From contig NC_079168.1 in the NCBI RefSeq assembly GCF_947568905.1, forward strand, positions 30,814,001-30,878,000: a DNA stretch of 64,000 nucleotides, in the 5' to 3' direction. The stretch is from Ostrea edulis. Taxonomy: Eukaryota. Each line of letters starts with the position of its first letter. The stretch's first letter is position 1. Of this stretch, positions 23,401 to 43,399 are shown piece after piece. Both the position numbers and the translations under genes were made by a program. The notes under the pieces were generated by a model. It was not told the DNA's origin. It was given only the letters and a program-made list of their open reading frames with translations, and searched no databases.

Positions 23401-24982
23401 TCAAAAATGTAAATAGAATAATTAATCATTATGATACATATGACTGATAAAACATCATAAACAATCAAATTGAATATTACCTCAATTGTGTGTGGAGACT
23501 CATTTTTCTTCTGTGATCGGTAGGATCTAGCTTTAACAACACAGCCATCATCCAATTTATACACTACAATAAGAAATGTTTGATTAAAATTTTATTACAA
23601 GTGTATATATATATATATATATATATAACACATATACTATATTTAACAATTACATTATGACTACATGATAATGATACACATGTATACCTTAAATACACAT
23701 GTTAAGAATTTCTATATTGACATTGGTCTAGAGTTGGCTCATACAATGTAACAATACTTATTGAAAATGCACTGTATAAGAAGGATGATATATGGGGAGT
23801 TGTTGTTCTGAACACAGGGGGTACCAAGGGACAGTGCCTGCATGTGTCATGTCGACTAGTCTTGTACCCTAAGTATTCGAAACAGCTTATCTATAGTATA
23901 CAATTTTAACAATTGAACATTATAACTACATGATACAATATACATATGTATACCATGATATATGCATGTTATGGTTACATGTATGATGTAATGTCTCATG
24001 TGGTTTACATTGTCTAAGCACATGCTACTAGTAATACAGTGTATTATGTATGAACCATGAGAAACCATGTTTGCACATATGCACTGTTTGTAGTTTCTTC
24101 ATGTGATTTCAATATAATGTTATCTGTAGGTGTTGCGGTGAAATCACACATCAAATGCAAAGTTGAAACTTTACGGCACAAGTTAATTGCATGTAATACG
24201 TTAAGTATTAATACCATGTTCAAAATGTCTCATGTTATGAACATTGTTTGTAGCTCATAATACTAAATTACAATGCACTTTTTTTTTCTTCTTCTCATAA
24301 ACATTACATACTGAAATCTGTCAAATGCATTATGATTTAAACATATCTTATTGAGAATATATATGTATTAATAATAGTGATGTATGCCCAGGAGGGCCCT
24401 AATTTGGAATAAATAAATCATATGATATATATATGCAGGGGCTATAAATTGATAAAATGATGCTAGTTTGTCATAAATTAACTCATTGAAACTACTAGAT
24501 TATTTATCATTCAACAAAAATATATGGTTTTTCAGCAGGCTGGGATGCTATAGGCCTAAAACTTTTTTTTCTGAGGGAGGGGAGGGGGGGGGGGGTACTT
24601 GGACATGTATACGATCGATCAGTTTTACCAACAATCATCATATTTAATTCATATAACTAATTATTATGTAAGATCATCTCTTCAGTAGACATCTTTGTTA
24701 CATGCTGATATGGTGTAAGTTACAGCCACAAAACGATTCAAGATCGATCAGTTGATAGTATCTGTCAAACTGATCAGCTGATAGACGATTTGACCTACCT
24801 CTGATATCCGAGATGTATTTCTCGCTGAAATATTTGTATCCCTTGGAAACTTCTTTGCATCCTTCACTCTTGTTTAAAGTTTTTATTGTTTCTTCAACAA
24901 AACCGAAGGTAATGAGGGGGACAATACTGAGATCTCGCGTTGCGCAACCAACCGACTTCGTACATTCCGCTAAATCCGACAT
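20494..24982 (-). pseudogene. SWIM zinc finger plus YqaJ (lambda-type) exonuclease gene of the ISL2EU element, with one nonsense codon
   Basis: Exons 24799-24982, 23481-23563, 21701-22430, 21264-21370, 20494-20880. SWIM CSCPIG..ACGH; YqaJ WHRIR..RITAS, LAASPDR, LLEIKCP, YFHQIMMQL. TAG at 20620-20622 falls where GLEW is expected and the frame continues CYLFVW...YLKG to a stop at 20494. Confidence 0.85.
22551..23151 (+). mobile_element. HINE inserted in an intron of the YqaJ gene
   Basis: AACAAGTGGTCCATGGGCCACATTGCTCACC ... AGCTCAGGTGAGCTAAAAA with 166-bp-type units. Confidence 0.85.
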
Positions 24983-25065
24983 GTTTGTTGTGCGTCGAAA
25001 CCGACGGTAGCCTCGTTTTCGATGCGGTATGCATATTTATGAGCATCTCATTAAGAAAGGAAACC

Positions 25066-25372: not shown

Positions 25373-25876
25373 TTAAAAATGGCCGGCTTCATACGCAGGT
25401 TCTTCTATATACACGTGTAAGTCATGATCTTCGGATATAATGTGCTGTACTAATTGTCGAGCTCTTCTCCCAGGGAAACGTATCTCTTCGACGGTTTCCC
25501 ACATCCAGTCTGCATCCCAAAACAATCCCCATACACTTCTTCGGTGACGTGGTTTCTCCAGTCGAATAAATCCCGATACTTTTTGAGTGCCGTTCAATAA
25601 CGTGTAAAACTGGTAAATCATGTACTGTATGAGGGGGGAATTTTTCAGGTACATGTCACTTAAACGCGACCAAATATCCTCCACTGTTTCATGTGACCGC
25701 AATACATAGTCAAAACACCAATTTTTAGATCGGCCCCAGCGTAATCGATGGCGACATCTCTGTACTAAATTGTCCCAGATCTCCATCTCGTCTACATAAT
25801 CTTCTACTATGGTTAAATTCTCCACTTGTTGTATTCCCTGGCGGCGTCTCGCTCTTAAAACTCTCCGTGTATCCAT
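25373..25876 (-). CDS. Polinton accessory protein resembling a catalytically dead CRESS-virus Rep (HUH) domain
   Basis: SKNWCFDY..(about 25 aa)..YMIYQFYTLLNGTQKVSGFIRLEKPR..V..LF..A.W parallels the Rep pattern WCFT...YLIYQ.E...GT.HLQG(F/Y)..F.KP; the HxQ and YxxK motifs are absent. Confidence 0.5.
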   Translation of the reverse strand: MDTRRVLRARRRQGIQQVENLTIVEDYVDEMEIWDNLVQRCRHRLRWGRSKNWCFDYVLRSHETVEDIWSRLSDMYLKNSPLIQYMIYQFYTLLNGTQKVSGFIRLEKPRHRRSVWGLFWDADWMWETVEEIRFPGRRARQLVQHIISEDHDLHVYIEEPAYEAGHF

Positions 25877-26013
25877 GACTGAAGGTCAGACAAGAATGAC
25901 TGTAGAAACCAGCTGACGTACAGGTGCTTGATCATGTGGTGCAGGTGCTTGATCACGTGATGCATAACCTTTACCTATAAATACAGGTGTTTTCTGAACG
26001 TTCGTTATTCACT

Positions 26014-26346
26014 ATGGGCGGCAGTGCTACTACGAGAATGGATGGATATAGCTATGTACTACAATGTATGAACGTGGCCTTACATGACCCTCTCATTCAA
26101 AATGCTCGTCAATTTGTACAAGAGATGTCACCGGAGGTCAGAAATGTACATAGTTTTCAACGGATTGCTGATTCATTAGCGGAGAATACCAATACGGGAC
26201 GTTTACTCATGATTTATTTGTATGCTGAGGAATTGAAACAGAACCTTCCAGACCAGATGAGTGACATTGATCGGATCTTACGCGATTGTCTACAAAAAGG
26301 ATTCGTGGAACTGATTCGTATGAAAGGAATGGCTGTCCTGTTATAA
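26014..26346 (+). CDS. Bcl-2-like protein 1 (Polinton)
   Basis: SFQRIADSLAENTNTGRLLMIYLYAEEL aligns by eye with BH1 (F..V..ELF.DG.NWGRIV.F...L); LQKGFVELIRMKG sits at BH2 spacing; TATAAATA at about 25974. Confidence 0.7.
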   Translation: MGGSATTRMDGYSYVLQCMNVALHDPLIQNARQFVQEMSPEVRNVHSFQRIADSLAENTNTGRLLMIYLYAEELKQNLPDQMSDIDRILRDCLQKGFVELIRMKGMAVLL

Positions 26347-26382
26347 AACAAGAACGTTTTGGAATTTTTTCATTTGATCATC

Positions 26383-26739
26383 ATGGCTGAATGGGACAAC
26401 AACAATTTTCTTACCGCTGTATTACAGTATTTCAAGGACTACAAAGAATCGGTGAACAACGCTCGTAGCGCTGCATTACAGTGTATCAAGGACTGGAAAG
26501 AAAAACAGCCGTTGAGATATAAATTCGCCATGAAGTTGTTGATCTTTTGGGAATTTCCTATGACCTTATATGAATATTCCGGCGTTTGCAAGCATATAGC
26601 CGACAACCTGAACAGAGAGTCTGGATTGATCATGATTTATACCATGGAGCAAGAATTTAGACGACGGGAACCTGAGAAGACTGGGGCGATTGTAGCGATT
26701 ACCGATCACTGGCTGGAAAAGGTGTATAAAAAAACCTAA
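26383..26739 (+). CDS. Bcl-2-like paralog 2 (divergent)
   Basis: EYSGVCKHIADNLNRESGLIMIYTMEQEF aligns with the BH1-like segment of paralog 1; all-helical, similar size. Confidence 0.5.
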   Translation: MAEWDNNNFLTAVLQYFKDYKESVNNARSAALQCIKDWKEKQPLRYKFAMKLLIFWEFPMTLYEYSGVCKHIADNLNRESGLIMIYTMEQEFRRREPEKTGAIVAITDHWLEKVYKKT

Positions 26740-26767
26740 CCGTTTTCTTTTCCTTTATTCCTGGAGG

Positions 26768-27073
26768 ATGGCCAGCAGTGACCACATCACAGAGAAAGCG
26801 ATAGCTTATGTATTGGATTATCTCACAGACATTCATTCTTGGCAGTTTGAATTTGTGTTACACTATCTGCGAGAAGAATTATTTCCCATCAGCTTAAAGG
26901 AGTATCCATGTCTCTGTCAGCATTTGATCGAGAACCGGATCACCCCGCAAGCCTTAGTACTGATTCATTTAATGGGCCAGGAATTGAAACGAATTCGACC
27001 CACAGACAGAGCAGAAATCGAGAAAATCAGACTACGATGTCTTCGAGAGATGTACGTCAAGTTAAACGTGTGA
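26768..27073 (+). CDS. Bcl-2-like paralog 3 (divergent)
   Basis: FPISLKEYPCLCQHLIENRITPQALVLIHLMGQEL matches paralog 2 FPMTLYEYSGVCKHIADNLNRESGLIMIYTMEQEF. Confidence 0.5.
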   Translation: MASSDHITEKAIAYVLDYLTDIHSWQFEFVLHYLREELFPISLKEYPCLCQHLIENRITPQALVLIHLMGQELKRIRPTDRAEIEKIRLRCLREMYVKLNV

Positions 27074-27252
27074 CCTTTAATCTGGAACGGAATCAAGTGT
27101 ATTGGCTACCTGAAGAAGATCGAACCAGTCCTTGGATGACCATGGCCGTGGATCGATGTCGATTTCAAACTAGGATTCGAGCCATGGAACAGATCTTGGA
27201 GCCTATATTGAATGACTTTTTACAAAAAACTGTTTTTGAATTGATATTGTGA
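27037..27252 (+). CDS. 71-aa PP1 regulatory subunit mimic, GADD34/ICP34.5/DP71L family
   Basis: RVxF motif KRVTF followed by R.SPW...AVDRCRFQTRI..MEQILEPIL, matching the GADD34 C-terminal R.GPW...ARDR.RF.RRI...E..L.P.L; AATAAA at about 27260. Confidence 0.85.
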   Translation: MSSRDVRQVKRVTFNLERNQVYWLPEEDRTSPWMTMAVDRCRFQTRIRAMEQILEPILNDFLQKTVFELIL

Positions 27253-27810
27253 TATGGTGAATAAAAATAGAGTCACCAGTTCTGTGTTTGTTGAATCTTA
27301 CAAAGGAGGGTATATAATAAGGAGATGAGGAAGTCTAGGCTGAAATCAAGATAGAAATCCGATTCTATACTTTGATTTCTATCTCTGAGGATGAATTGGA
27401 TATTTCTACAGGTGTACACCCCTGAGAAATAAATAGTTTAAACCCGCTAGGAGAAAATTTTACCTCGTCTCGACTCTTTGGCGGGATGATCCTGAATTCA
27501 TTTCAGGGTGTATGAGCATAAAATGCATAGGATTAGATGCAGCCCGGTGAAAACTAGGCGTTGGCTTGAACACCGGGGAGAAAACGAGTCCTCGACATGA
27601 ATAAACGAGGAAAAACTCTCTACTCGAAAGCACAAATCCGCCATTTTGGACGTCCACCATCATGGCGTTCAAACTGGACAGGGATGTTTTCAACGACGTC
27701 CGTGCTGGAGTCGTTTTAAACCAGCGCAACGTCAAATTCCAGCATTCCGTTCTAGGAACCAGCGACTTGTAAAGTCAAAGAAGAAGAAAAGAAGTAAGAA
27801 GAAGAAGAAG

Positions 27811-28593
27811 ATGGCAGGCGCTAGTTATGATTTTCAAGGAGGGTTTGACTCACGTTTCCGACTTGTAGTCATTGGCGAGAAGAAAGAAGGGGATACCTGG
27901 GTGCAGTCTAGTATTACAGAACTGGGGGTGTTTACACCCCCAGATTTGACCCAAGTCATAGTTAACCGGGCGGTCGATCGAGCTCGAAAGAGGTATGGCG
28001 CCGAGGGAGGAGGACCATTCCGTAGCACCTTTACTAGGATGCGGGACTTGGCCACAGTAGCTGCGACAGCGCCACCGCCACCGCCTCCGTCCTCAGCATC
28101 CCACACCGTGCCGCCACCCAGACCAGCGACGCCGCCTAGCCCTAGGTTGTCCAGGACAGTGTCGGCCTTCCTGCCACCCCCACCACTACCGCTAGCGCCA
28201 CCCCCACCACTACAGCTATCGCCACCATCACCACCACCTATGCTAGAGTACACTCCGGTGTCAAGTCCAGAGGTTTCCCCGAGGTCGCCCTCGCCCCAGA
28301 GCCGCGCCAGGAGCAGGTCGCCCAGCCGGAGGACCCCGCCACCCAGACCCCCGCCGCCCAGAGTCATCAATTGCCCGATCACCAACAGAACCATTAGGAT
28401 TCCGCCATGGGCCGTAAGAGTGCGGGACCGGCTGATGAAATGCCCCATCTGTTGGTTGGACGACCGGCATTCCGGGATCAAGTGCCGGGGGTGTGGGCAG
28501 CGAGTAGTATGCTGCGATTGCCTCGAAAGGAATGAGAACGGGCGGTATACAAGAGGAAGGTGTCCGCATTGCCGGCATGAGGGACCCCATTAA
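27811..28593 (+). CDS. Proline/SR-rich protein with C-terminal RING-type finger
   Basis: CPIC..CRGC..CCDC..CPHC; central poly-Pro and RSRS tract; ATG at 27811 downstream of a promoter cassette. Confidence 0.7.
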   Translation: MAGASYDFQGGFDSRFRLVVIGEKKEGDTWVQSSITELGVFTPPDLTQVIVNRAVDRARKRYGAEGGGPFRSTFTRMRDLATVAATAPPPPPPSSASHTVPPPRPATPPSPRLSRTVSAFLPPPPLPLAPPPPLQLSPPSPPPMLEYTPVSSPEVSPRSPSPQSRARSRSPSRRTPPPRPPPPRVINCPITNRTIRIPPWAVRVRDRLMKCPICWLDDRHSGIKCRGCGQRVVCCDCLERNENGRYTRGRCPHCRHEGPH

Positions 28594-28777
28594 AGAACAG
28601 GGAGACCAAACGGCCCTTTTCAGGGCCACCAACTTTTTTTGAAAAGACACTTTTTATTGCAAAAATCAAGAAACACACAAGTTTTTTTTTTTTTAAAGTT
28701 TTATTAACACAAGTCACATAGTAGGCAGAATAAAGTTTTTTTTTACAAGTAATAGCTAGAATAAAGCTATAATAAAG

Positions 28778-29275
28778 TTACATTTTCTTGACAATGTAAA
28801 CATGTTTATGATACTGATAAGCAAAGTCACAAATCCATTGTCTATAATGAGTCCAATTGCCTCCGGCTAATCCACATCCAATACGATAAGGAAACGCTAA
28901 AGTCTGGTAAGACAAAGTGCCTAATTCCTGTAAACATTGTTGAAACCAAAGTTCACGTTGTTCGGGGGTATCGGCATACAGGGGTAAGCGTTGAGTGCCT
29001 CTCCCGTAATCCCATTGCGCTAACAAACAGATCACATCAGGATGAGTAGAATGAGGCATAATACACACAGTACCCGGTATTCCTCGATCCGCTTCTATAG
29101 CTAAATTTCTCCGTCCTAAAGGTTGTCGGGTCGCATACAGATTAGCCCAAGGAAATCGGTCGGCAATACGTTGACTTAATCCATGAGGTTTCACCGTTAA
29201 ACAGTTACATTGTTGTACAATAGCATCCACCCAAGGTAGAGATAATACATCTCCTCGTAGATCCGTCACCGACAT
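28778..29275 (-). CDS. Macrodomain protein (ADP-ribose binding/hydrolase, TARG1/Poa1-like)
   Basis: GDVL..DAIVQQCNC..HGLSQRIADRFP ... LAFPYRIGCGLAGGNW are macrodomain signatures. Confidence 0.85.
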   Translation of the reverse strand: MSVTDLRGDVLSLPWVDAIVQQCNCLTVKPHGLSQRIADRFPWANLYATRQPLGRRNLAIEADRGIPGTVCIMPHSTHPDVICLLAQWDYGRGTQRLPLYADTPEQRELWFQQCLQELGTLSYQTLAFPYRIGCGLAGGNWTHYRQWICDFAYQYHKHVYIVKKM

Positions 29276-29667
29276 GCTGGTTGACAGGTCTCACAGGTAC
29301 ACGTTGACCAGGGTTCTTGACTGTAAGGACAATGTTGAAACAGCCGGGGATCAAACTTTCTCTGAGTCCAGCGCTCTCTAAACTCCTGCAAGATCTCACA
29401 GGTACAGTCCTTATGCGCTATTTCTTCTTCAGGGGTGATGGTACAATGCTGCGGACACTTACACTCTAGCCAGGGTTCTCTAGTGTGACTACAACATTTA
29501 TAGACAAAGGGATAATACGTCAGCTCTGCCAATCTCTCTATCCACTTCTGTTTGACCAGGATGTTTTCTTTTTTATAATGAAAACAGCCACAAGTTAACC
29601 AATGTCCTCGGCAATACCCACACACTAGTACATCTTTCTCATCATCCGCGTACCGTTCAAACGACAT
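29266..29667 (-). CDS. Cys-rich orphan with three C-x(5-6)-W-x2-CxC repeats
   Basis: CGYCRGHWLTCGC, CCSHTREPWLECKC, HCPYSQEPWSTCTC; TATA at about 29695-29703. Confidence 0.65.
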   Translation of the reverse strand: MSFERYADDEKDVLVCGYCRGHWLTCGCFHYKKENILVKQKWIERLAELTYYPFVYKCCSHTREPWLECKCPQHCTITPEEEIAHKDCTCEILQEFRERWTQRKFDPRLFQHCPYSQEPWSTCTCETCQPACR

Positions 29668-29852
29668 GATTGAGAAAAATGGTAACAAGTGACCTATTTA
29701 TATAGTGTTTTTTGATGAGTCATCAACATGACGTCCGCCATCTTTGACTGAGGTAGGGGATGTTTTCAAGGACGTCCGCGCTCTCGCCTTTTTAAACGAG
29801 CGCAACGTCAAAATCTGGCATTCCGATTTTTTAAGGAACCAGAGAAGTAGAT

Positions 29853-30146
29853 ATGAGTCGTAGAGTAGGACCAGACCCTACAGTGAATGACTATTTTTTC
29901 AAATGGGAGGAGGATTGGGACCGAGAGATTGCCCCGCCGGCCTCACGGGAGGCTCTTCCCCCACCGCCCATGAGCCAGGATCTGCCCCCGCCAGAGGAAA
30001 ACTGGGACGCAGAGTTGGAAGTGGTGCAGCGGCCTCCGGGGAGAGTGTTTTTTAAACACGGGTTGCCTGTTTTTGTGTTTGACCACCAACAACCCCCGGA
30101 GGAGCAGAAAAAGAAGAGAAGAAAGAGGAAGAAGAACAGACAGTGA
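29853..30146 (+). CDS. 97-aa orphan with two EExWDxE motifs and a basic NLS-like tail
   Basis: EEDWDREI and EENWDAEL; KKKRRKRKK; upstream promoter cassette shared with the RING gene. Confidence 0.6.
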   Translation: MSRRVGPDPTVNDYFFKWEEDWDREIAPPASREALPPPPMSQDLPPPEENWDAELEVVQRPPGRVFFKHGLPVFVFDHQQPPEEQKKKRRKRKKNRQ

Positions 30147-30375
30147 GGGGGGACAGAGAAGAGAAGAAGAGAAGGAGAAGAGAGAGAAGAAGAAGAAGAA
30201 GAAGAGAAAAGACCAAGAACAGAGAGAGAGAGAAAGAAAACAGCCCTTTTCAGGGCTACCCATTCTTTTTGAAAAGACATGGTTGATTACAATGACAAGA
30301 AAAAACAAACCCAGAAGATTTTTCCAACGTTTTATTAAACTCCAACTATGAACAATAACAATACAATAACATAGT

Positions 30376-30873
30376 TTACAATACATTCAGTCTTTGACAT
30401 TGACAAGTTTGTCCTTGATGGGTTCTCGGTTTTCGGAAGGTCTCTTTAAACCAATCAGCCACAAAACGATCGCGTTGTAAGGCCGTGCCTTTCCAGGGAA
30501 GTAACCATTCTTGTACGGTGCTTCTATGTCGATGGCGTTGATGTAAAAAATACACACAGTATTGTCCACAGACATCCGTATTCAAATCTTGATAACAATG
30601 GGTGTTATGAATCCAAGTCTCTCCGTGGCGTTGAATAAAGTCTTGGATGTCTTTATGGCTGGGAGGTAATCCGTAAGAATCAAAATATTCGACGGTAGGG
30701 CTACTCAAATACAAACAGACTCAATGCGCTCCAGGGCGATCGTGAGGGTCTGTATTCACCACGATGGCTTTGTGATGAGGTAACAGCTCAGGTATGACAT
30801 CTCGAGGATACACACCTGCAAACGCCGGTCCTAAATCTCGTTGTAAAACATCTCTCAATTGCTGAGTATCCAT
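30376..30873 (-). pseudogene. Polinton adenain-like cysteine protease with a nonsense mutation
   Basis: MDTQQL...VVNTDPHDRPGAH*VCLY..EYFDSYG..CYQ..VCGQYC; TGA at 30721-30723 replaces the Trp after the catalytic His. Confidence 0.9.
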
Positions 30874-30888
30874 CTCTCTCTCTCTCTC

Positions 30889-32292
30889 TTAGTAATCGAT
30901 GCTGACTTCTCGTTGTTTGTTGATTTCTAGCAGATTGTCGAACACGGCATACACCACACAGTTTAAGGTCCTGGCCACGTTGGCGGCAAATTGCACTTCC
31001 ACTCTCAAGTTCCCAGTCTGTATGAGCTGAAATTTATCCGTCTGGGCTTCTTGATCTTTCGTGAAATCCACACACCAGAGGGTGTAACCGTTTTTATACT
31101 CTTCCAGGGTAATGTCCGGAGCCCAGTCCTGGCCTAATTTTCCCAAGCCTTTGTACAGACTCAAATACGATCTCAGGTACTGATCGTCGGTGAAATTAGG
31201 TTCCAAAGGTCGGGTTTCCATCATTTCTCCATTGATACTGATTTCTAATTTCTTGACTTTCTCATTTTGGAAATGAAAGGGGTTTCTGGTATTATCCCCA
31301 TTAAAAGCCGCATTGTCCACAAAGCCCAACACGACCAGTTTAGGCATCTGTCCTTGAAACAGATGATCGGTGATTTTAGATTGGGTGCCACTAGGAATGG
31401 TGAAGGTTTTCACTTCCACTCGTCTCAATGGATATTTCGCCGTTTGAGTACTCAGTTGCTGATTGATGAGATTAATGATACTCGGCACAGGTTTGACTTT
31501 CCTCACCCACAAGATCATACTTTGAATGACCACTTTCCCACTACTCCCGGCAGCGGTCATCATGTAGAACTGGGGTCGAGCGCGATTGAATCTGAGACGG
31601 ACATCCACGCCATTAGGGAGACATTTCTCTTGCTCAAACAAATCCAGATGTAATCGATCCATCAACACGATCTCCTTACTGTCTGTAATCTTCTCGTGAC
31701 GTTTTCTCAACCCTACATTCTTGGAATCATCCGGATACTCGGGAGTCGGGATGACGGCCGCGATGTTGACTTTGTTAGACACTACTGCAAATTCCACAGG
31801 AGTTTGAGTCAGAGCTTCTAATTTGACCTCATCCATATGTCCTGCCGTATCTTTTTCCCACAAGCTACAGGCTCTCATCTGGGTTTCCAGAGTCTTGGGT
31901 GCATAAGACAACAATTTCTCCAGATACGCTTTGTAGGGATAAGTATCCGTCCCCGGGGTAATGACTTTTCCATTGAGACTGACATCGATTTCACTGAACA
32001 AGGAATGGAGAATGTTATTCACGGGGGTCGAGGTCGAATTGCCTCCTGCGAGATTCGTTCCATTGGCTTTCGTGAATTTACATACCATCTGGAGATAAGT
32101 TTGGGATAAATCCAGATATTCATCTCCTTGTCCTTTGATTTCAAATTCAATCGGAGCCGTATCCGAGTTGAGGGTACTGGAAATGGGGTAATATTCCATC
32201 CATTTCGAATCTTCTAAAGTGACGTTGGTCGGGGGCACTTTAAACAGTTCTAAACTGTCGGTGCCACAAGCGCAAGATTCTCTGTGCATCAT
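30889..32292 (-). CDS. Polinton major capsid protein (double jelly-roll)
   Basis: 467 aa open frame; ELFKVPPT...PIEFEI...YLDLSQTYL...[17 protein letters not shown]...YPYKAYLE typical of Maverick MCPs. Confidence 0.92.
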
Positions 32293-32371
32293 ATTGGAAC
32301 GATGTGTTACTCAGCGTGAACTGGCATCAAATGTGTTCTGGTCTCCTTCTCACCCCCTTTTTATAAGGTTC

Positions 32372-33052
32372 TCAGTCGAAAATATCCAGAGAGCGTTTTG
32401 GCTTACCCCTTTTCACTAGCTTCCTACCTCCCTTCCTAGATCGCTTCCTAGGTCTCTTATGAGGCCCTCCCCGAGCTAAGATACGTTGTTTTCTTTTAAC
32501 AAATCCTTTTCCTTCCTGTATTCCCACCTGTTTTCCCGCCTGTTTTCTTTTGAGGGTCGTGGTTCCAGGCTTCCTGAGTATTCCTGTGCGCGCTTTTCTT
32601 CCTCGTTTGGATGGGGCTTTTCGAGACCTTCGCCTACGAGCATACCCTGCTGTCTCTTTCAGGGCTTGGGCACCGTGTGTCTTGAGAGCGTCTTTGAGTG
32701 ATCGTTTATTATCTAACACATCCATCCCTGTTTTAGCAGCAGCCTTTAAGGCACTTTTAGCCCCCGATTTGAGTAAATCGGTGAAAAATCCTTTTCCCTT
32801 CTGCTTTTCAGATTCTGGATCATATTCTTCTGTTGGATGGATTCTACGTCGTCTCCTCTGATAAGAGCGATAAGGGCGGTCGTAATCATAATATCTCTCT
32901 TGATAGACAGGACGCTGTTGTTGTTGTTGCTGTTGTGCGGGGGCTCCACCTAATAATCCGCTGATCAGGGGACCCGCCACTTTGCTAGCTATTCCCAGCA
33001 GGGCTCCAAGCCCGTGACCCTGCTGCCGTATTAAACCTTTATGGTAGTGCAT
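32372..33052 (-). CDS. Basic core/virion protein with QxGxG motifs
   Basis: RQQGHGLG, KQKGKGFF, IQEGKGFV; Arg/Lys-rich; lies directly upstream of MCP. Confidence 0.75.
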   Translation of the reverse strand: MHYHKGLIRQQGHGLGALLGIASKVAGPLISGLLGGAPAQQQQQQQRPVYQERYYDYDRPYRSYQRRRRRIHPTEEYDPESEKQKGKGFFTDLLKSGAKSALKAAAKTGMDVLDNKRSLKDALKTHGAQALKETAGYARRRRSRKAPSKRGRKARTGILRKPGTTTLKRKQAGKQVGIQEGKGFVKRKQRILARGGPHKRPRKRSRKGGRKLVKRGKPKRSLDIFD

Positions 33053-33079
33053 CTTGATGTAAATGAACTTCGTTAGGGG

Positions 33080-33223
33080 TTACACCCGCTTTTTATACTT
33101 TTTACGCCGTCTCTTTCTCTTCTTTCCTTGGCCCGCTTGACCCGCAATGGCATTGGCAATCCATGGAATGAGAAACCAGATTCCGTGTCCTTTCTGGCGT
33201 CTGACTCCTCGATGGTACTTCAT
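33080..33223 (-). CDS. 47-aa basic core peptide (below the ORF-track cutoff)
   Basis: MKYHRGVRRQKGHGIWFLIPWIANAIAGQAGQGKKRKRRRKKYKKRV; its N-terminus parallels MHYHKGLIRQQGHG of the next gene. Confidence 0.7.
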   Translation of the reverse strand: MKYHRGVRRQKGHGIWFLIPWIANAIAGQAGQGKKRKRRRKKYKKRV

Positions 33224-33226
33224 CTT

Positions 33227-34212
33227 TCAATACACTTTGCGGAAATGAAGTTTGACTAAGGACCGCCCATTTAAAAAGCCCATAGGACGCCCTAAAGAAT
33301 TCATGATGTGTACCTCAATGGTATCGAAATATTTCTTACTCAGTTTCAAATATTCGGCTCGAATCGGTTCCCAACGGGCTTGTTGTCGATCGTCGTATTG
33401 AGCCGTACAGGGGACGACTCTCAATAATTTCAATTTGTTGGTGCCCACCACTTGAGGATCCACAATGTCACAATACACATACATGGCTTTCAGATTGTCG
33501 TAGACATCCATGGTCGTGTTCCCCAAGTAATTCACGTTGATCCATTTCGTCATGGTTTCATGGCCCAGGATCATTTTGTCACTATCCAGACCTAGCTTGT
33601 ACGCTAAGGGCGTAGGGAAACGAATGCACATGGGGGTGGCTCTCAGTGTTCTCCCATTAAAGTGATACTCGACACGATCGTACTCGGGGTGATACACTAA
33701 GATCTGGTTGTTCCCCTCTTCGTTAGGATCCCCTAACTCGCTCCATACTTTCCACAGGGTTCTCCTTAAGGCTGCGTTGATTTCATTGATTAACGCCAAA
33801 GGTTGTGTATAAGCTCCGGGTCGGAAGTGAATGCGAATGATATCGAAGGGAAATAAACTATCCCCTCCCTCAAAGAGATGGGACCATGGCGTCAGATGCC
33901 AGGGGACCACCACCACACACCTGGCCATCGTGACTTTGCCCATATTCTCTGTCTTAAATCTTTCCCATTTATAAGTGTTGGGATCTTGGACATGTTTCGT
34001 ATACGGATCTGGAATGAGAACGTCCACATAAGTCTCGCTATCCGATACGTTTTGTAAGTTGGCCGAGTACATCATCCGACTTCCCATTCTCCATCCGTTA
34101 AGTCCATGGTGTGTGGCAATAACGTTTTAAATTGAGCAGTCGTATTCGTCGGAAACGATTCCATCGACCCATCACTCAACAGAGTCATGTAAAACCCTTC
34201 TCCTCCAGCCAT
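33227..34212 (-). pseudogene. Polinton minor capsid protein (penton-like) with a frameshift
   Basis: MAGGEGFYMTLLSDGS...LPHTMDL.DGEWEVG then a frameshift near 34075 into ..MMYSA...MYVYCDIVDPQVVG...LLRVV...LHFRK. Confidence 0.85.
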
Positions 34213-34329
34213 GATGTCTTAAATGAGACCCTGTCTCTGTTTCCTTCTCTATTTATACACAACACCGTTTTGTTTTTTCACAATTTTTATTTGAAACAAC
34301 ATACAACATGACAATACATTCAATTCAAT

Positions 34330-34779
34330 TCATTCTTCTTGATCGCGGCCACCACCGCACATCAACGCATCCGAGTCTGGTAACGTCAGGATTCGTCTCG
34401 GGACTAAGCGTCGTCGCATCACCAGATAGTGTCGGGTTCCCCAGCAATCGGCTACATCATAACCTCCATTGATCATGTCTTTAAAATGGTGGAGACAAGC
34501 TTTCACGTTGTCGTACCAAGGACTATCATTTAAGGTCCAATCGGATTCGTCTTGTCGTCCCATCAATCCCCAGAAGGCTTTGACTTTCCAGCGAAACTCT
34601 TGATATTTAGTCTTTCTGATAAATGGCACCCAACCATCAGGAATCACGATCCGTTTGTACAAGTACACAGGATGCGTCGACGTTTTGTGTTGTTTACAAT
34701 GCATCAAACACATCTGCTTATCCCAGAACCAGGTACTTTTCTTCCCCTCTTGTTTCCAGGCGTACTGTGGCTTAGCCAT
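34330..34779 (-). CDS. 149-aa Polinton orphan protein
   Basis: Open frame with own TATA (about 34814-34820) and downstream AATAAA; no recognisable motif. Confidence 0.6.
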   Translation of the reverse strand: MAKPQYAWKQEGKKSTWFWDKQMCLMHCKQHKTSTHPVYLYKRIVIPDGWVPFIRKTKYQEFRWKVKAFWGLMGRQDESDWTLNDSPWYDNVKACLHHFKDMINGGYDVADCWGTRHYLVMRRRLVPRRILTLPDSDALMCGGGRDQEE

Positions 34780-35019
34780 GGTGAACTGATCTCTCAGGTG
34801 AAGGGGACTCCTGTTTTATAGGAGGTGCATTCATTTGAGGACTAGGCATGACGTAGCCCACCAAAGAACTTAAGGTCACCATCCAAAAATCGCGATTGGG
34901 ATCGCGTATGGCTAACATGACTACCGAGGTGATAATGATGGTTCAACAGAGGAATAATTGTGCAAAATACACAATTTCACTCCGGGGGACTTTTTCACCC
35001 AAGAAAGTCCACTGGGTGG

Positions 35020-36105
35020 TCATGACAGAATGAGATCCGCTTGCGGAATCCATGAATCAAAACTGGGAGGATATCCTTTCCAACGCACTTTGACTTCTGA
35101 AATGACTTTTTTTCCCACACGCCGCTTTTTATACCCTAAGATTTCTTCCACTTCATAGACATCATCGTCTTTAATCACTTGTTGTAATTCCTTCTCGTAA
35201 AAGGTTCCTTCTAATTCTTCCCCGTGATCATCTTGAATGCGATAGACGTTTCGTCCTGGCACTTTTCTAGAGATGGTAAACAGTTCTTTGGTCCAATTCG
35301 GTAAATATCCTTTTTCAAACGTACGTTTGGCTTTACTAATGCGTACACGATCCCCCACTTGCAAGCGACTCGTGGTATCGGCACTCTGTTTTCCATACAA
35401 GGTTTTCCATACGGTCAAGACATTCTTGGCATTGACTTGAGCAGGAGCTCGCCGGATACTGCGATGATAGGTATGATTGTAACCATACACCAGATCGGCC
35501 AAGACATCGACATACCGTCGTGTTTTATGGCCTGTAAAATACCGCCACATGCGTGCTTTCAGCGTGCATTGAAAACGTTCCACAATACTGGCTTTGGTTT
35601 CGGCATTACGGGTCGTAAAGAAATGAATGGATTTGAAGGCTTGACGAAATTCTTTATTGGTAAATTCTTTTCCTTGATCGGACTGAATGCGCACGGGGCG
35701 ACGTCCCTCTCGAAAAATCCGTCGTAAGCCTCGTATCATTTCTTTCCCCGTTTTCTGTTTTAAAGGCACGACCCAGGCATATTTAGACAGCACGTCAATG
35801 GCACATAATAAAAACGTATACCCATTATTGTCTTGTTTCAAGCTGGAGACATCGGCTAAATCTAATTGCCATTGTTCATCCATATCCGTCACTCGTGTTT
35901 GTCGTCGCTTGAATTTCCTCCGTATCGGTTTATGCAAGGTATAGGTATCTTGAGCTTTCACCCATTCTCGAATTTGAGACAGGGTAATCTTGTGTCCTAA
36001 TTGACGCACTTGACGATACAACGCCTGGACTCCCCCATAACCTGTCTTGGGATCGTAATACAGTCGCTGTAAGATCTGTTCTGGTTTCATGGTAGATTTA
36101 ACCAT
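35020..36105 (-). CDS. Retroviral-like integrase with C-terminal chromodomain
   Basis: WQLDLAD, IQSDQGKEF, ASIVERF DDE triad; YEVEEIL..VRWKGY..FDSWIP chromodomain. Confidence 0.95.
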   Translation of the reverse strand: MVKSTMKPEQILQRLYYDPKTGYGGVQALYRQVRQLGHKITLSQIREWVKAQDTYTLHKPIRRKFKRRQTRVTDMDEQWQLDLADVSSLKQDNNGYTFLLCAIDVLSKYAWVVPLKQKTGKEMIRGLRRIFREGRRPVRIQSDQGKEFTNKEFRQAFKSIHFFTTRNAETKASIVERFQCTLKARMWRYFTGHKTRRYVDVLADLVYGYNHTYHRSIRRAPAQVNAKNVLTVWKTLYGKQSADTTSRLQVGDRVRISKAKRTFEKGYLPNWTKELFTISRKVPGRNVYRIQDDHGEELEGTFYEKELQQVIKDDDVYEVEEILGYKKRRVGKKVISEVKVRWKGYPPSFDSWIPQADLILS

Positions 36106-36851
36106 TTTCCGATGTCACGGGCCGTCTTTCTACCAGCATCTCTGATCGGTTTAGGGGTTAGACGTTGCGGTGTTTCATAGAACGATTGATCAAATCCCGT
36201 GAGCTCTTGAAATCCACTCTCCTCTTCCTCTAGAGGTCTAGGCGTACTGATTTTCCCTGGTTTGTCCATGGCTTTTATAACATCCCGATTGCTCACATAT
36301 CCTTTGGGAGCATGAGTCTCTTTTAACGCTTGAGCAAATTCCTCTAATCCCGCGGGGGGATCACGATGTCTTAAGGGTCTTTGTCGCTGGGTTTCGCTCA
36401 TTAAATCCACAATATTGGAATCGGGAACCCTGCGTCCTCTATAGCTGATTCCTCCTTCTTTATTCCAAGTCACCACTTTGGATTTCTTGAGATGATCGAG
36501 TAATAAACCTGCTTTCTTTTGACCCGGTTTATTGACGCTTTTGATAATCTGTTCCTCCAAGTCATCGGGTGCTGAGGCGGCTGAGGGTGGTGAGGCGGCA
36601 CTGGCTGCACTGGTTGGGGAGGGCAGAGTCGCTGTGGTGGGATGTCGAGCTTGTTGTAAATATTGACGATAGCGATGAAGTTGATGACCGTACAACCCCA
36701 CTTTTTCTTTCTCGGTTAAATCATCTCGATGTTCAATCTCATCCAAATCACTGCGTAAACCAATAGTCGAGGTAAATTCGGGAGGTTTAGGTAATTTGCC
36801 TTTTAATTCGTTGAGCATCGCTTCCGGTACCAACACCATTTTTCGACTCAT
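36087..36851 (-). CDS. Conserved Polinton protein of unknown function
   Basis: MSRKMVLVP...KAGLLLDHLK..VTWNKEG.ISYRG..VPDSNIVDLM...PAGLEEF..AL pattern seen in Maverick core-block genes. Confidence 0.75.
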   Translation of the reverse strand: MSRKMVLVPEAMLNELKGKLPKPPEFTSTIGLRSDLDEIEHRDDLTEKEKVGLYGHQLHRYRQYLQQARHPTTATLPSPTSAASAASPPSAASAPDDLEEQIIKSVNKPGQKKAGLLLDHLKKSKVVTWNKEGGISYRGRRVPDSNIVDLMSETQRQRPLRHRDPPAGLEEFAQALKETHAPKGYVSNRDVIKAMDKPGKISTPRPLEEEESGFQELTGFDQSFYETPQRLTPKPIRDAGRKTARDIGKWLNLP

Positions 36852-37177
36852 GATTTCTTACAAATCTTGCCACACACAAACGAACCCAATCCTTTTTGGT
36901 GGATGAGTATACCTCGTCGTTTTTTCACAGGTTGAGGCTGGACTAAGCGTCTTAAGATGTGTTTCTTTCGACCCAGTTGTCGCTTCTGAGTAGGGGTGAG
37001 AGGAATCACCCCTTTTAATAGATTGTACACAATCTCACAAATCTTTAAAATGCAGTCATTGGAACAATGTTTCAACACCTCTGTCTTTAATTTGCTGGAA
37101 TAGTGAGGAGCCGCTAACGTCTGCAAGAGCGGTAAATGAGGTCGTAATCGACATTCACACTTCTTCGTATGAGCCAT
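36848..37177 (-). CDS. Small basic Polinton virion protein
   Basis: ICEIVYNLLKGVIPLTPTQKRQL..KKHILRRL...KRRGIL.QKGLG; TATA at about 37210. Confidence 0.7.
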   Translation of the reverse strand: MAHTKKCECRLRPHLPLLQTLAAPHYSSKLKTEVLKHCSNDCILKICEIVYNLLKGVIPLTPTQKRQLGRKKHILRRLVQPQPVKKRRGILIHQKGLGSFVCGKICKKS

Positions 37178-37217
37178 GGTAATGAAGGGTGGGGCACCTT
37201 CCCCCTCCTTTTTATAC

Positions 37218-38090
37218 CTAGTCCCGGACAATGGCACTCGGATGTTTAGGATCAAAACGCTTGTGATGGACGGTCTCTTCGTGACGATTGCGGTTCTCTC
37301 TCGCATTGAAGACCAGAGGGCAAAATTTACATTTATATTTCTTTTGCACCTGAACCGGTGTTGAGGTGGTTAAGGGTTGAAATTTCATGCCTCCAAAGGT
37401 ATGAGCAAAACTCGGTAGAGCAGTATCACTGGTTCTGGAACTTCCTATAGGCCCATGCATGGGTCGTTCCATTTTCTTTTGAGCTAATCCGGCTTTCAGA
37501 TCGGCTAACGTTTTAGTGGCCTTGGGGGGAGTGGCCTTGGGAAACGGCATCTTCACAATGAGAGGGGTTTTCTTTGGAGCCCAATTGGGAAACGGATTCT
37601 TCATCCTGAGAGGTGTCTTCTTAGGTGTCTTCTTAGGGGACTTCTTAGGTGTCTTCTTAGGTAAGCGAATAATGAGTTTAGGAATTCTCTGAGGCGATTT
37701 TTTAGCTTTCTTAGCCCGTGGTTTCTTGGTTTTCTTGGGTTGTCTCCCACGGGGCTTACGGCCTGTTTCCCATTTGAATAAATGACGGATAATGGTCCCT
37801 CCTAAGAATCCGGCGCCTCCTCGTTTCAAAATGGCTTTTTTACGCTCTTCTTCATTGGCCTTCTTATCGGCAATGACACTCAAGTCTTGGCGATGGGATT
37901 GAATGAACCGCTGAGTGATTTTATTGCCTGGTAAGACGCCTCGCAATAAATTTCGAGCTCCCATCGCAAACCAGTTGAGTAAGGCTCTACGTCCTAATTC
38001 AATGAGATGGCTCCGTTGAACGGGATCCCGTTCCCGTTGTAAACGGCGTAACGTTTTGACTAATTTACTCTTCGCGGAAGGTCTACCCAT
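37218..38090 (-). CDS. Basic Polinton protein with KKTP/KKSP repeats and a C-terminal C2H2 finger
   Basis: N-terminal part paralogous to 36848-37177 (NLLRGVLP...KKAILKRGGAGFLG); CKFCPLVFNARENRNRHEETVH zinc finger. Confidence 0.7.
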   Translation of the reverse strand: MGRPSAKSKLVKTLRRLQRERDPVQRSHLIELGRRALLNWFAMGARNLLRGVLPGNKITQRFIQSHRQDLSVIADKKANEEERKKAILKRGGAGFLGGTIIRHLFKWETGRKPRGRQPKKTKKPRAKKAKKSPQRIPKLIIRLPKKTPKKSPKKTPKKTPLRMKNPFPNWAPKKTPLIVKMPFPKATPPKATKTLADLKAGLAQKKMERPMHGPIGSSRTSDTALPSFAHTFGGMKFQPLTTSTPVQVQKKYKCKFCPLVFNARENRNRHEETVHHKRFDPKHPSAIVRD

Positions 38091-38139
38091 GGTGAAGACT
38101 GTCTTTCAAATGATACACCTGCCCATGATGTGACATTAT

Positions 38140-38778
38140 TTATACTCTCGGGGGCATGTGCACAGCCAAGTTGGTAAAGAGTTGACTTCTTAATCTTAAA
38201 TCGTCCGACGTCTGAGGACTCAAGTCCACTAGTAAATACCCGTGAGGTACACGGGTGGCGTCCTCATAGGCTGGAAGTAAATGCGGCATTTGTAATTGCC
38301 GACTTAACACCCCAATCTGAGATTTATCTCGAGGATTTTTAAACAGCACAAGATAGTGAGCATTCAGACTGATGGTACGATGTTGTACTGCTCGATCAAA
38401 CAGATTTTGTGTGATATAAATGACACTGGTATTTCGATGATGCGCTTTGCGCGTAAACCAGTCGACAATCGATTCGATGGCTTTACCTCCCATCATATCA
38501 TCAAAAATGAGTAGATGACGCGTACTGAGATCCGCCACTATCTGCTCATCGTCTTGAGGTATATTGCGGATAAAAGTGACCTTGTCCTGTAAGGATTCGT
38601 ACGCGGGCTGCCATTCTCGATAACACCATACTATCTTTTCGGGAGGCGGTGCAATCCACTGCGTATTTTGCACCAGCTGTTTGACAAATTCTGTTTTACC
38701 CGATTTAGAGGGTCCGGCCACCACCATGGTAAATTCATGTTTCAACTGAAAAGGCTCAAGTGTCTCGTAGGTATACAT
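38140..38778 (-). CDS. A32/FtsK-like DNA packaging ATPase
   Basis: Walker A GPSKSGKT, Walker B LLIFDD, HHRNTSVIYITQNLF. Confidence 0.93.
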   Translation of the reverse strand: MYTYETLEPFQLKHEFTMVVAGPSKSGKTEFVKQLVQNTQWIAPPPEKIVWCYREWQPAYESLQDKVTFIRNIPQDDEQIVADLSTRHLLIFDDMMGGKAIESIVDWFTRKAHHRNTSVIYITQNLFDRAVQHRTISLNAHYLVLFKNPRDKSQIGVLSRQLQMPHLLPAYEDATRVPHGYLLVDLSPQTSDDLRLRSQLFTNLAVHMPPRV

Positions 38779-38819
38779 CTTGATAAATGACACAAGTTCA
38801 GGAAAATCATATCTATTTA

Positions 38820-39347
38820 TTAACAAATAAAAATACGTACAGCTTGCTCAACACCATGTCTACAAATAGGACATTGTGTCAGTCCCGTAGCACATATAGC
38901 ACAAGTACATAAATGACCACAAGGTAAAAAAGCTATTCTCAAGTCTCTTTCTAAACACAGATGACATTTCTCCGTCGTAGCCGGATTCTCCACACTGTCT
39001 ACAGGCAAGTCTCCCCATTCCTTCCCCGTGTCTCGCATTCGGCTAACGGCGTCGAACATTTGGCGTACCCATTGTTTGCCCTTATTACACTTCAGGTAAG
39101 GACAGTGAGGATACCAATAAGCATGTTGTATCCAAGGATTGTCGACAGCTCCCCAATGGTGAAGTCCAAAGTTGCAATAAAAACAGCACGTGTTATCCCC
39201 GTACCCTTTGTAAAAGTATCCCGCTTCTGCAATGGTAGGTAATAGCTTCTGCAAGTGTTCGGCACCATTTTCAAACGACGCTACTCGATCTGACAGTAGA
39301 GCATAACGTGGTGTACCCGGGTTATGTAGTGATTCGTAGTCCGTCAT
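38820..39347 (-). CDS. Inhibitor of apoptosis (single BIR plus RING)
   Basis: BIR: R..SF..AEAGYFY.G.GD..CFYC-x16-H-x6-C; IAP-type RING CHLC..AFLPCGHLCTC..C...CPICR..VRIF. Confidence 0.92.
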   Translation of the reverse strand: MTDYESLHNPGTPRYALLSDRVASFENGAEHLQKLLPTIAEAGYFYKGYGDNTCCFYCNFGLHHWGAVDNPWIQHAYWYPHCPYLKCNKGKQWVRQMFDAVSRMRDTGKEWGDLPVDSVENPATTEKCHLCLERDLRIAFLPCGHLCTCAICATGLTQCPICRHGVEQAVRIFIC

Positions 39348-39384: not shown

Positions 39385-42300
39385 TTAATACCCGTAAGGC
39401 AGCGTGTCATAGTCATGAATACGTTGACGTTTATCATACACCATGCGGTATTTCTTCACCAGAGGAATGGTTCGCACATCATGTTGGCGGGTTCGTTGAA
39501 TAAAGTGCGGATAGCGGACATGGACTTCTTCTTCTTCTCCTTTCAACATTTTTTCCAACGTATCGAGAGACACGACTCTAGAGGCACGATAATTGAGTGT
39601 CAATCCTTTGACTTTGCAGACAGATTTTCCATTCTGGGTCTCGTACGCATAATTTTTGGGCCCGCCCGACATGTACTTGGTGATACGATCTCCACCCAAT
39701 TCATCGGTCCAGCCGCCTAAACTGTTGATAATGGTCGGGTTGAACTGGGTCTCGTCGTGCTGATAGATGATACTATCCGTGTCAAAGTATAAGACACGCT
39801 CTCCCAAAGGCTGTAACGTCTCGTACAAATGTAAACGAGCATGAGCTGTTGTAAAACACGCCAGCACCACGTTTCCAAAGGGGCAGTCTTCTAAAAATTC
39901 TTCTTTCTCCTGATAATTGATCAGCATCATATCACATTCGGGGCGTTCACGATTTTCTAAGAGTTCGATGCCTTTGACTTCTAAAGTGGCATCTTGTAAT
40001 TTCTGTTGTAATTCTTCTTCTTCCGTGAGATACAGGGATTTGGGTAATTGTAATCGTTGAGCAAATTTTCCCCACAAGCAATTTAAAAAGAGTTTTGCAA
40101 TGGTTCTTCGGACCGGATTTTTCTGGATGTCGGCCGGGTTCATGGCAATGCCTTCTCGTTGCTGAATTTCCTCAATGTAATGTTGCTGCTGTTGGGCTGT
40201 TTGACAATCCTCGGGGAATCCGGAAGCTTCTTGTTTAATTTTCAAAAAGGTGTTGATATACGATCGAAATAAGTGCTCACTGGTTTTCTCAAAATGCCAA
40301 ACTTCGTAAATGCGGTCGAGACGATAACCCAGATCTAATGCTTTGTGAAGTTCGGTGGTCACCCAGGTTCCAGTGAGACTGCGTTCAGAATCGGTGTGCT
40401 GGCACCGCTCGTCGGGTCCTAAGTTGCGCTGTTCCGCACAGGTGCGGCATAAGGGAAAGAGTAATTTGCCCCCGGTCTTGTAAGGTAATACGGGGTGATA
40501 CAGCTCTCAGGGTGGTAAGACACGACAACGAATGAGCCCGAAATAGTCTCTGACATCGGTGAAATGGCTGGTGATGACTTGGGGATGTTGGACGGGAAAT
40601 GGCTTGTATTTCAACACGTACGGGTACAGGGAACAGACATCCACGTATCGCATATCCCCTTCCTCACAATACAGTCGTGTAGCATTGGTCCGGCCTCCGT
40701 ACAAAGCGTCACGGGGATTCAAAGGATCTTGTATATCGACTCCTTGTAAAAATTCCTGTAAGTCGGCATTGGTCTGGGTCTGACGATCAAACTCGTGTTC
40801 CCATATGCTCACGACTGTATAGCCTTGGTCTTCTAAAGCACTGGCTCGTTTTAAGGTGTCCAGGTAGAGGTCTTGATACGTATGCTGAACACGATGAGGA
40901 TGCATGTCAGTCAACAGATTCGGGTAACAGGTGGGACAGCCGTGCCAGTAACAGCCATAGAATTCGTACACGATACGGGATTCCTCATCATACCCATCTA
41001 CTGTATAGGGTCTAAGCGTGACTTCGCCCCCATTTCTAGCATGTCGTATGCAGTGATGTTGATGTTCTAGCCAGGCGAGCCATCGACAAGCTTTAGCTGA
41101 ATATCGTCGTGCTGGCCGGTAGCCCATATTAGGAATGATGGCGATGGTATTTTCATCCATGAATCCTCGTCGGTAGGCTAAATTAGCCGTGCTGGCAAAC
41201 GTGATGGATTCTTGAAAGGGGTCTACTTCCACCAGATCAAACAGGGTGGACTTGAAATGGGCACAACAGCGGCGTAAAATATCCACGTCCGAGATGCAGT
41301 AAGCTAAGAATTCTTTCTGGAAATCAAAGACTTTGCCCTCTTGTTGATGGTACCAAGTATAGAAGGCTTCACGATTGGCGGTGGACATATCGTCAGGATT
41401 GTAGAAATGAGCGGCCGGGTAAGGACCCACATACTGCTGGTTCTCTGTCGTGTTGAAAAAGTGAGGGAAATATCCTTTTTTCAATTCCGTTAATCCGAAA
41501 GCAGAGGGCATCTTGGCAAGAGCAAAGGGTAGAAAGTTGTAAGAATCGATGAATCTCAACCCCAAGACTTGCATGGATAAGATTTTACTGCCGTTCAGGA
41601 TGACGGTGGGTTTGATACACGCCGTGTGAACCAGGTAATTCAAAATAAACTGCCCATCGTATCCTTTGAAATTGTGGGCAATGATGGTGACTTCATCGTG
41701 TTTGAGTTCCACATGGCCTTGCTCATCGGTCTCGCTCTGTAAGAGCCATTCCATAAACTGTTTTAACGTGTCGGGTCCTTGAAATAGGAAGCGGCGTTGT
41801 GATCCGAATCCTTCACAATAAGAACAGGGCTTGTCGATATCCACACTGTCGCAATGTTGACACACACGTTCTGCCACGCATAAATTGGGGGTGTGAATAC
41901 CGTTTTCCTGACTGCATTCGAAATCGTAATAAATGTATATTTTCAACTCCTCTTCTTCTTCTTTTTCTTTCTTAGGTTTGGGTTTCGTCTGTACAAAGCA
42001 GTGATGAGGCATGGTGACGACTTTGTGACAGATGCGGCATTCGGTTTGACCCCCACACGCGTGGCGTTTTAATAATTTCTTGGACATCCATTTCTGACAC
42101 TGGTTACAGCGCCCCATTAAACTGCAGACCGTGGTCGTTGTATTACTGCTGTAGGGTTTTAAATGGTTCTGGTAACAAGCTGCATTTCTGAAAAATCCCT
42201 TACAATGAGGGCAATTCGTCTGAGTCCCGTCCGGGATACAGGGGGTATCGGCTAAACAAAATGAGCATCGATGAGGACAGACGGTCCGATGTTCTTCAAT

Positions 42301-43347: not shown

Positions 43348-43399
43348 GATGTCGAAAGTGACACCCAATGCACCGCGCGCCGCTTTATATATATACCTG

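Follow-up and report, generated by a model that had tools for sequence, protein, structure and literature searches.

We analysed a 64,000-nucleotide stretch of the genome of the oyster Ostrea edulis (assembly GCF_947568905.1, contig NC_079168.1, positions 30,814,001 to 30,878,000 of the forward strand; hereafter the window, from whose first letter all coordinates are counted). An earlier reading made from the letters alone (the sequence-only reading) had placed here a Polinton/Maverick with a set of genes against host defence. The region comprises the accessory arm and the core of a Polinton/Maverick of the adintovirus type, and the element spans 16112–43837, beyond the 25373–39347 given in that reading, with a GC content of 0.455 inside it and 0.34–0.36 in its flanks. 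On the ORF map all seven accessory open reading frames (ORFs) on which that reading was built, three Bcl-2-like ORFs (B1–B3), a PP1-binding GADD34-like ORF, a RING protein, a macrodomain and a BIR-RING IAP, were present and open where it had placed them. The core genes lie on the minus strand: an adenovirus-like cysteine protease (30385..30870; its family-2 counterpart, see below, matched Peptidase_C5 at E 0.0016 and 18.6 bits, below the cut-off of 21.3), an ORF of 467 amino acids (aa) that, by its size and its place beside the protease, we take to be the putative major capsid protein (30889..32292; not confirmed by the libraries), a retroviral-type integrase with a chromodomain (35020..36105; rve 44.7 bits, Chromo 33.4 bits, both above cut-off), an A32-like packaging ATPase (38140..38778; Pox_A32 29.4 bits, above cut-off) and a protein-primed PolB in two pieces through one in-frame stop (39385..43458; DNA_pol_B_2 found by Pfam in both, at 130.5 and 33.4 bits). 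PolB is a single ORF of ~1320 aa in most sister copies.

To place the window copy in its family, the genome was searched with the capsid gene. Because 91 of 271 candidates were scored, copy counts are lower bounds: at least 78 capsid-gene copies at 96–99% (family 1) and at least 13 at 87–88% (family 2), with matches on ten numbered contigs. Family-1 left arms were taken from 39 top-ranked copies and right arms from 20 (counts out of 40 add the window); the family-2 sample held 11 left and 6 right arms. An AGTAGT left terminus was recognised in 38 of the 40 family-1 left arms, and 15 of 20 family-1 arm pairs had 6-bp target duplications; of the other five pairs, the search pattern placed three out of register, in one the left end was absent, and one had no duplication. 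Terminal repeats in the family measure 100–440 bp, with identity up to 100%, and the unit length computed from the terminus positions is ~20.1–20.4 kb, which corrects the earlier figure of under 20 kb. The mean nucleotide identity of the capsid genes (98.8%, 38 copies) indicates that the burst of copies was recent. The module order of family 1 was repeated in 10 of 11 family-2 left arms, the eleventh giving no match. A metagenome scan with the macrodomain, from which records of this genome may have been excluded, gave 0 loci, and exact-match look-ups of nine element proteins found none. Two pairs of element genes lie in opposite orientation 5–10 kb apart (C3:49129845 with C3:49139322; C5:27102510 with C5:27107198) and are possibly head-to-head or nested copies.

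The ORF at 26908..27252 (plus strand) is predicted to encode a PP1-eIF2alpha recruiter of the DP71L/CReP type. It matched PF10488 at 33 bits (cut-off 26.1) and, among PDB sequences, PPP1R15B (E 1.4e-6) and DP71L (E 1.1e-5), so the GADD34-like call of the sequence-only reading was upheld as a prediction of PP1 binding. Both an RVxF motif and an eIF2alpha-binding motif are present. The latter was compared with the GADD34 motif as quoted in PMC5346070, and the pattern R..W...A.DR.RF..RI, in which the position after R-x was left free (Ser in the window, Gly being preferred), was found in 48 of 50 PP1 ORFs. The full 114 aa was rejected as the functional unit, because the overlap of its first 55 codons with B3 shows constraint in no frame but that of B3; constraint in the PP1 frame is confined to the C-terminal ~60–71 aa. 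Read from an internal ATG, the protein is 71 aa, the same length as DP71L. In the alternative PP1 allele, an in-frame ATG immediately before the RVxF motif is lacking (window overlap 26908–27073), the B3 stop codon of the window falls within the RVxF codons, and the frame overlapping B3 is open in both PP1 alleles, as against 7% and 0.9% of the resamples under a synonymous null. A host PPP1R15-like exon matched the element ORF at 31% over 42 aa. The RVxF and eIF2alpha motifs are common to African swine fever virus (ASFV) DP71L, herpes simplex virus (HSV) ICP34.5 and host GADD34/CReP, whereas here they sit on a ~20-kb integrating element and overlap a Bcl-2-like ORF.

Related arrangements were seen elsewhere. 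Two other, divergent Polinton-like lineages of the genome (L043:5809-9935 and L122:1129-2697) have their own DP71L-like ORF beside a gene that joins CARD (55 bits) to PC4 (39–50 bits), with a relative of B1–B3 also in L122 and an rve-chromo integrase in L043; the PP1 recruiter thus recurs outside the family under study. In two metagenome proteins, P0008 and P0026, a domain of the B1–B3 family is continuous with an RVxF-like stretch, to which P0008 adds an eIF2alpha-like motif (PP1c_bdg E 0.054); this join may reflect a genuine fusion, or else a pseudogene with a frameshift.

The IAP identity of the ORF at 38820..39347 (minus strand) is certain: its BIR (56.8 bits) and RING (45.7 bits) both scored above the Pfam cut-off, as the sequence-only reading had proposed. 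A BIR with a C-terminal RING is common in cellular and baculovirus IAPs; in contrast to these, the element protein has a single BIR, is 175 aa long and occurs as three exchangeable alleles. Likely host BIR exons matched it at ~32–52%. The macrodomain (28778..29275, minus strand) gave no Pfam match on its own, while a 30-sequence profile matched Bt_1257 (E 1e-8), SCO6735 (E 3e-5) and TARG1 (E 2e-4), and also Poa1-type structures. The earlier macrodomain call was therefore correct, and the protein belongs to the bacterial SCO6735/Bt_1257 (ALC1-like) subclass. This SCO6735/Bt_1257/TARG1 class is set apart from the MacroD type, to which the macrodomains known from RNA viruses belong. N24 and Q87 are retained; by alignment, with equivalence judged by eye, the Asn27 and Gln85 positions of SCO6735 and its GCGLAGG loop are matched, whereas the element protein has Gln at the Val25 position and is often deleted. 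Gln and Asn residues are needed in SCO6735 (PMC9411070). The nearest named relatives are multi-copy Saccostrea proteins at 60–62%. Sixteen of 40 family-1 left arms carry the macrodomain in an internally deleted form; it is dispensable for the spread of copies. The deletion is in-frame, removes 309 nt between 7-nt microhomologies and leaves an open remnant of 60–62 aa.

The Bcl-2-like ORFs, all on the plus strand, are B1 (26014..26346, 110 aa), B2 (26383..26739, 118 aa) and B3 (26768..27073, 101 aa). Together with a fourth paralogue, B4 (e.g. L041:5088-5432), which the window lacks but 35 of 40 family-1 left arms, and family 2 as well, possess, they form one family (hhalign 98.4%). B2 is missing from 4 of 40 family-1 left arms and from family 2, so that an arm carries three or four paralogues. 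A representative library holds 33 relatives of the family, including some long proteins that are probably spurious; the names of ten that were looked up were uninformative. AlphaFold gave confident five-helix models (predicted local distance difference test, pLDDT, 84 for B1 and 90 for B3). Among the PDB rows listed by Foldseek for B1, 35 of 39 were Bcl-2 family proteins (E 0.28–1.8), and the Bcl-2 family made up 11 of 13 (B1) and 2 of 2 (B3) rows aligning at least 95 residues. The only near whole-chain rows for B3 were BAK1 (Z 7.7, 97 residues, root-mean-square deviation 3.3) and A179L (Z 7.4, 99 residues, 3.2). B1 also retains an N-x-G-R remnant of BH1 that aligns with host BH1; when the NWGR motif was examined, only B1 had N-T/P/V-G-R, with Trp replaced, and B2, B3 and B4 lacked G-R.

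Several results weigh against a Bcl-2 fold. Structural scores stayed below significance (Foldseek E at least 0.28, Z 5.3–7.7), and by the tool's guidance Z below 13 is common for helical bundles; no Bcl-2 row for the B3 model appeared among the 50 viral-library rows listed, and profile comparison with host Bcl-2 gave probabilities of 12% and 0.8%. Pfam gave B1 a Bcl-2 hint under cut-off (E 0.032) and did not match B2 or B3; 3 of 19 family members matched Pfam Bcl-2, with a best E of 0.013. Searches of PDB sequences with B1 or with family profiles yielded nothing significant, and an Atlas search with B1 no usable match. The array might accordingly be an unrelated small helical bundle, the kit then consisting of IAP, PP1 recruiter and macrodomain only, an alternative compatible with any of the modes of spread weighed below. 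Given the dominance of Bcl-2 proteins among the B1 rows and among the longest alignments, and the BH1 remnant, we regard it as somewhat unlikely. With fold scores inside the background for helical proteins, a Bcl-2 fold of the modelled B proteins is likely, although unproven. The three Bcl-2-like ORFs of the sequence-only reading thus stand as open members of one family whose best whole-length folds are Bcl-2, but their scores are sub-threshold, the BH1 remnant is restricted to B1, and for two of the three an anti-apoptotic role is open to doubt. The best whole-length fold matches were ASFV A179L, ORFV125, vaccinia F1L and BAK; unlike these, the B proteins have only five predicted helices in 101–118 aa and no hydrophobic tail (no C-terminal membrane anchor was found, the maximum 19-residue hydropathy being 0.71–0.99). 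The Bcl2 of a lancelet adintovirus is 197 aa and was only a weak match, whereas here there are three or four paralogues of ~100 aa.

The remaining gene of the set (27811..28593, plus strand) encodes a Pro/Ser-rich protein of 260 aa with a C-terminal Cys-rich RING-like finger, in two alleles that both keep the Cys pattern. It had no Pfam match and only a weak one to the TRIM32 RING (E 0.08), and the earlier RING label therefore holds for an open frame with a Cys motif, at motif level only. Across the set, fold matches were firm for IAP, PP1 recruiter and macrodomain, but weak for Bcl-2 and RING.

The module is a property of the family. All 78 family-1 capsid genes had B1 linked to them, and 77 of the 78 had an IAP; with the order conserved in family 2, this disposes of the possibility, raised with the sequence-only reading, that the genes occur in one copy only. 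Full-length ORFs in the 39 left arms numbered 39 for B1, 39 for B3, 36 each for PP1 and RING, 31 for B2 and 22 for the macrodomain. Selection was estimated as the ratio of nonsynonymous to synonymous changes (pN/pS), counted on full-length ORFs only and, between alleles, on one pair per gene. Between alleles the main accessory genes gave 0.28–0.62 (Fisher p ≤ 0.002): macrodomain 0.28, the free part of PP1 0.37, B3 0.38–0.49, B1 0.42, RING finger 0.43 and IAP 0.55. This constraint was weaker than that of ATPase (0.10) and PolB (0.18), and was not significant for the RING part of the IAP alone (0.55, p 0.19) or for B4 (0.79, p 0.6). Within family 1 it was clear for the RING ORF (0.36) and borderline for IAP, PP1 and B1. 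The accessory genes were thus under purifying selection between subfamilies, but several looked unconstrained within the family-1 burst. Nine module combinations were found among the 40 copies, and the family-2 IAP allele was present in 13 of 78 copies of family 1, which demonstrates recombination between subfamilies. The accessory arm behaves as a variable region in which B1, B3, PP1 recruiter, RING-like ORF and IAP are nearly always kept while the presence of B2, B4 and the macrodomain varies. The kit is not a fixed one: alleles are swapped, paralogue number varies, the macrodomain can be deleted and several genes look unconstrained in the recent burst.

How the copies spread was addressed with copy-private changes. 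Neutral decay after insertion from one master copy would give pN/pS of ~1. The private ratio was 0.32 for the capsid gene in 30 top-ranked copies (p 0.0015), 0.25 for PolB and 0.21 for ATPase. Private ratios of 0.21–0.35, including the check described next, indicate that numerous lineages were replicating and that every one of them required the putative capsid. Such constraint, as read from the genomic copies, favours spread by reinfection, an argument made from capsid constraint for vertebrate Mavericks in PMC8097293. On the other side, a check for ranking bias with eight low-ranked copies gave 0.35 for the capsid gene and by itself reached only p 0.077; the private-change test took in full-length ORFs only, and changes scored as private may occur in unsampled copies. 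The putative capsid had no Pfam, PHROG or PDB sequence match. Shared changes within family 1, though few, looked unconstrained for the macrodomain (0.94), for B2 (0.87) and B3a (1.37), and for the Cys-rich ORF described below (1.01), and the deleted macrodomain has reached 16 of 40 copies. These points weigh against the virus explanation. The true virus proposed in the sequence-only reading is favoured, though not proven, by capsid constraint and allele mosaicism. We consider it moderately probable that the element is an endogenised adintovirus-type Polinton virus that entered the germ line recently and repeatedly from a recombining population, with accessory genes that keep the cell alive and translating. 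A more far-reaching version, an oyster DNA virus of ~20 kb that is still in circulation and has invaded the germ line about a hundred times as a recombining population, with an antagonist of the integrated stress response, a gene accordion of mini-Bcl-2 genes and alleles swapped between subfamilies under host immune pressure, seems to us possible rather than probable.

An intracellular transposon with no infectious phase could also carry such genes, as a germ-cell survival kit that damps the DNA-damage, stress and apoptosis responses set off when the element replicates and integrates. Burro LTR (long terminal repeat) retrotransposons with BIR and BCL2-like motifs are a precedent (PMC6431247), the spread of the macrodomain-deleted form and the apparent relaxation of several accessory genes in the burst fit this explanation, and no related viral contig was found in an IMG/VR scan with the putative capsid (0 loci; records of this genome may have been excluded). 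Yet constraint on the capsid in private changes, together with a protease that is full-length in 37 of the 39 other left arms, would be unexpected if capsids went unused; the vertebrate Mavericks give the same capsid argument (PMC8097293), and alleles have been exchanged between subfamilies otherwise 12% divergent in the capsid gene. We judge a purely intracellular transposon unlikely. Still less likely is a helper-dependent, virophage-like virus, induced by a large DNA virus and using its kit to keep the co-infected cell alive until particles are made: the kit parallels the one carried by large lytic viruses, and such a life style has been proposed for Mavericks generally (PMC8097293), but a helper would normally be expected to provide these functions itself. 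That the genes are neutral, recent host captures in one copy is hardly credible. The host does have IAP, Bcl-2 and PPP1R15-like genes; against this stand family-wide retention, purifying selection between alleles, the compact intronless ORFs distant from host genes, and macrodomain relatives in multi-copy Saccostrea proteins.

For the endogenised Polinton virus that we prefer, the following course may be proposed. The virus would have entered the bivalve germ line recently and repeatedly from a replicating, recombining population, and its accessory genes would keep the producing cell alive and translating. From its motifs, the DP71L-type protein is expected to dock PP1 through RVxF and direct it to phosphorylated eIF2alpha. 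The BIR-RING IAP, by its domains, would block or ubiquitinate proteins of the caspase pathway. B1 may still sequester BH3 helices, if by analogy its weakly supported fold is that of Bcl-2, while B2–B4 are more probably non-apoptotic Bcl-2-fold adaptors, like the immunomodulators of poxviruses. The SCO6735-type macrodomain, judged by subclass and key residues, could remove ADP-ribose from DNA or acidic residues.

The window copy itself is defective: its left terminus is absent, it contains a ~7.9-kb insertion, and protease and PolB have one in-frame stop each. A displaced left piece (16112..17158) is 94–97% identical to the left arm of sister copies and lacks the left terminal repeat; it holds a zinc-knuckle ORF (16310–17098, minus strand) whose family-2 counterpart matches zf-CCHC. 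The foreign insertion (17159..25059), seen as a gap when aligned to sister copies, has a GC content of 0.344, against 0.455 for the element, and an inverted repeat at its borders; the ORF at 18802–19845 within it is presumably transposase-like. The terminus motif occurs only once within the window, the copy retaining its right end alone, with a right terminal inverted repeat at 43738..43837 that ends in ACTACT. Mutually inverted internal repeats of 32-bp units near both element ends (25062–25274 and 43399–43513) are not true termini. Beside the right end lie tyrosine recombinase and reverse transcriptase ORFs (45128–47898), which we take to be a DIRS-like retroelement, and the window holds minisatellite arrays at 4193–5407 (period 24), 9380–10119 (37), 14134–14970 (31) and 56738–58191 (61).

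Other ORFs of the element complete the map. ORF A (25373..25876, minus strand, 167 aa), outside the set of defence genes in the sequence-only reading, has an HUH/Rep origin-binding-like domain (Pfam Viral_Rep E 0.044); its Atlas look-alikes (0.93) lay in Rep clusters of CRESS viruses, with a low recognition score. Small Rep/HUH-like ORFs flank the accessory arm, namely ORF A and a 110-aa ORF of family 2 (oriented L107 8509-8841), apparently without catalytic motifs as judged by eye. A Cys-rich ORF of 133 aa (29266..29667, minus strand) is confined to family 1, had no library match and shows pN/pS of ~1; positive selection on it, suggested by a one-pair ratio of 5.1, disappeared with 36 copies (1.01). 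An acidic/basic ORF of 97 aa (29853..30146, plus strand) is constrained. On the minus strand, three ORFs between capsid and integrase (226, 286 and 149 aa; 32372..34779) had no significant family match in library scans, the 286-aa one being presumably the penton, and three further core-module ORFs (254, 152 and 290 aa; 36087..38090) received no family assignment from the same scans.

With adintoviruses and animal Polintons (PMC8502044, PMC4028283, PMC8097293) the element has in common pPolB, rve integrase, packaging ATPase, adenain-type protease, putative capsid genes, (AGT)2 ends, a 6-bp target duplication and a length of ~20 kb; a 20,773-bp Crassostrea gigas Polinton is given in the supplement of PMC4028283. 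Unlike known adintoviruses, it adds a DP71L-type PP1 recruiter, an SCO6735-type macrodomain and a Bcl-2-like array of three or four ~100-aa genes, and it shows high copy number, mostly open frames and allele mosaicism. The sequence-only reading had regarded the combination of genes as undescribed for Polintons. Since Bcl2 and IAP homologues were reported in adintoviruses in PMC8502044 (where IAP labels also stand beside the Mytilus and Pinctada maps, in an ambiguous layout), the novelty of the kit is only partial. The searchable text of PMC8502044 has no mention of GADD34, PP1 or macro, the available portions of PMC10294476 and 10.64898/2026.10.13.758929 contain nothing on these accessory genes, and no report of a PP1 recruiter or macrodomain in Polintons was found in the literature searched, outside which lie most subscription papers and the Repbase reports. 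Within that literature, the PP1 recruiter, the SCO6735-type macrodomain, the mini-Bcl-2 array and the modular exchange appear undescribed.

The infectious status of animal Polintons has been argued mostly from their capsid genes. Selected and reshuffled genes aimed at eIF2alpha shut-off and apoptosis would be an independent argument for virus status, and in so young a family, many of whose copies are open, the infectious question can be put to the test. With the predicted PP1 recruiter, the strategy of DP71L and ICP34.5 would reach small integrating invertebrate viruses as well, and the Bcl-2-like paralogues of ~100 aa may mark out how small a Bcl-2 fold can be.

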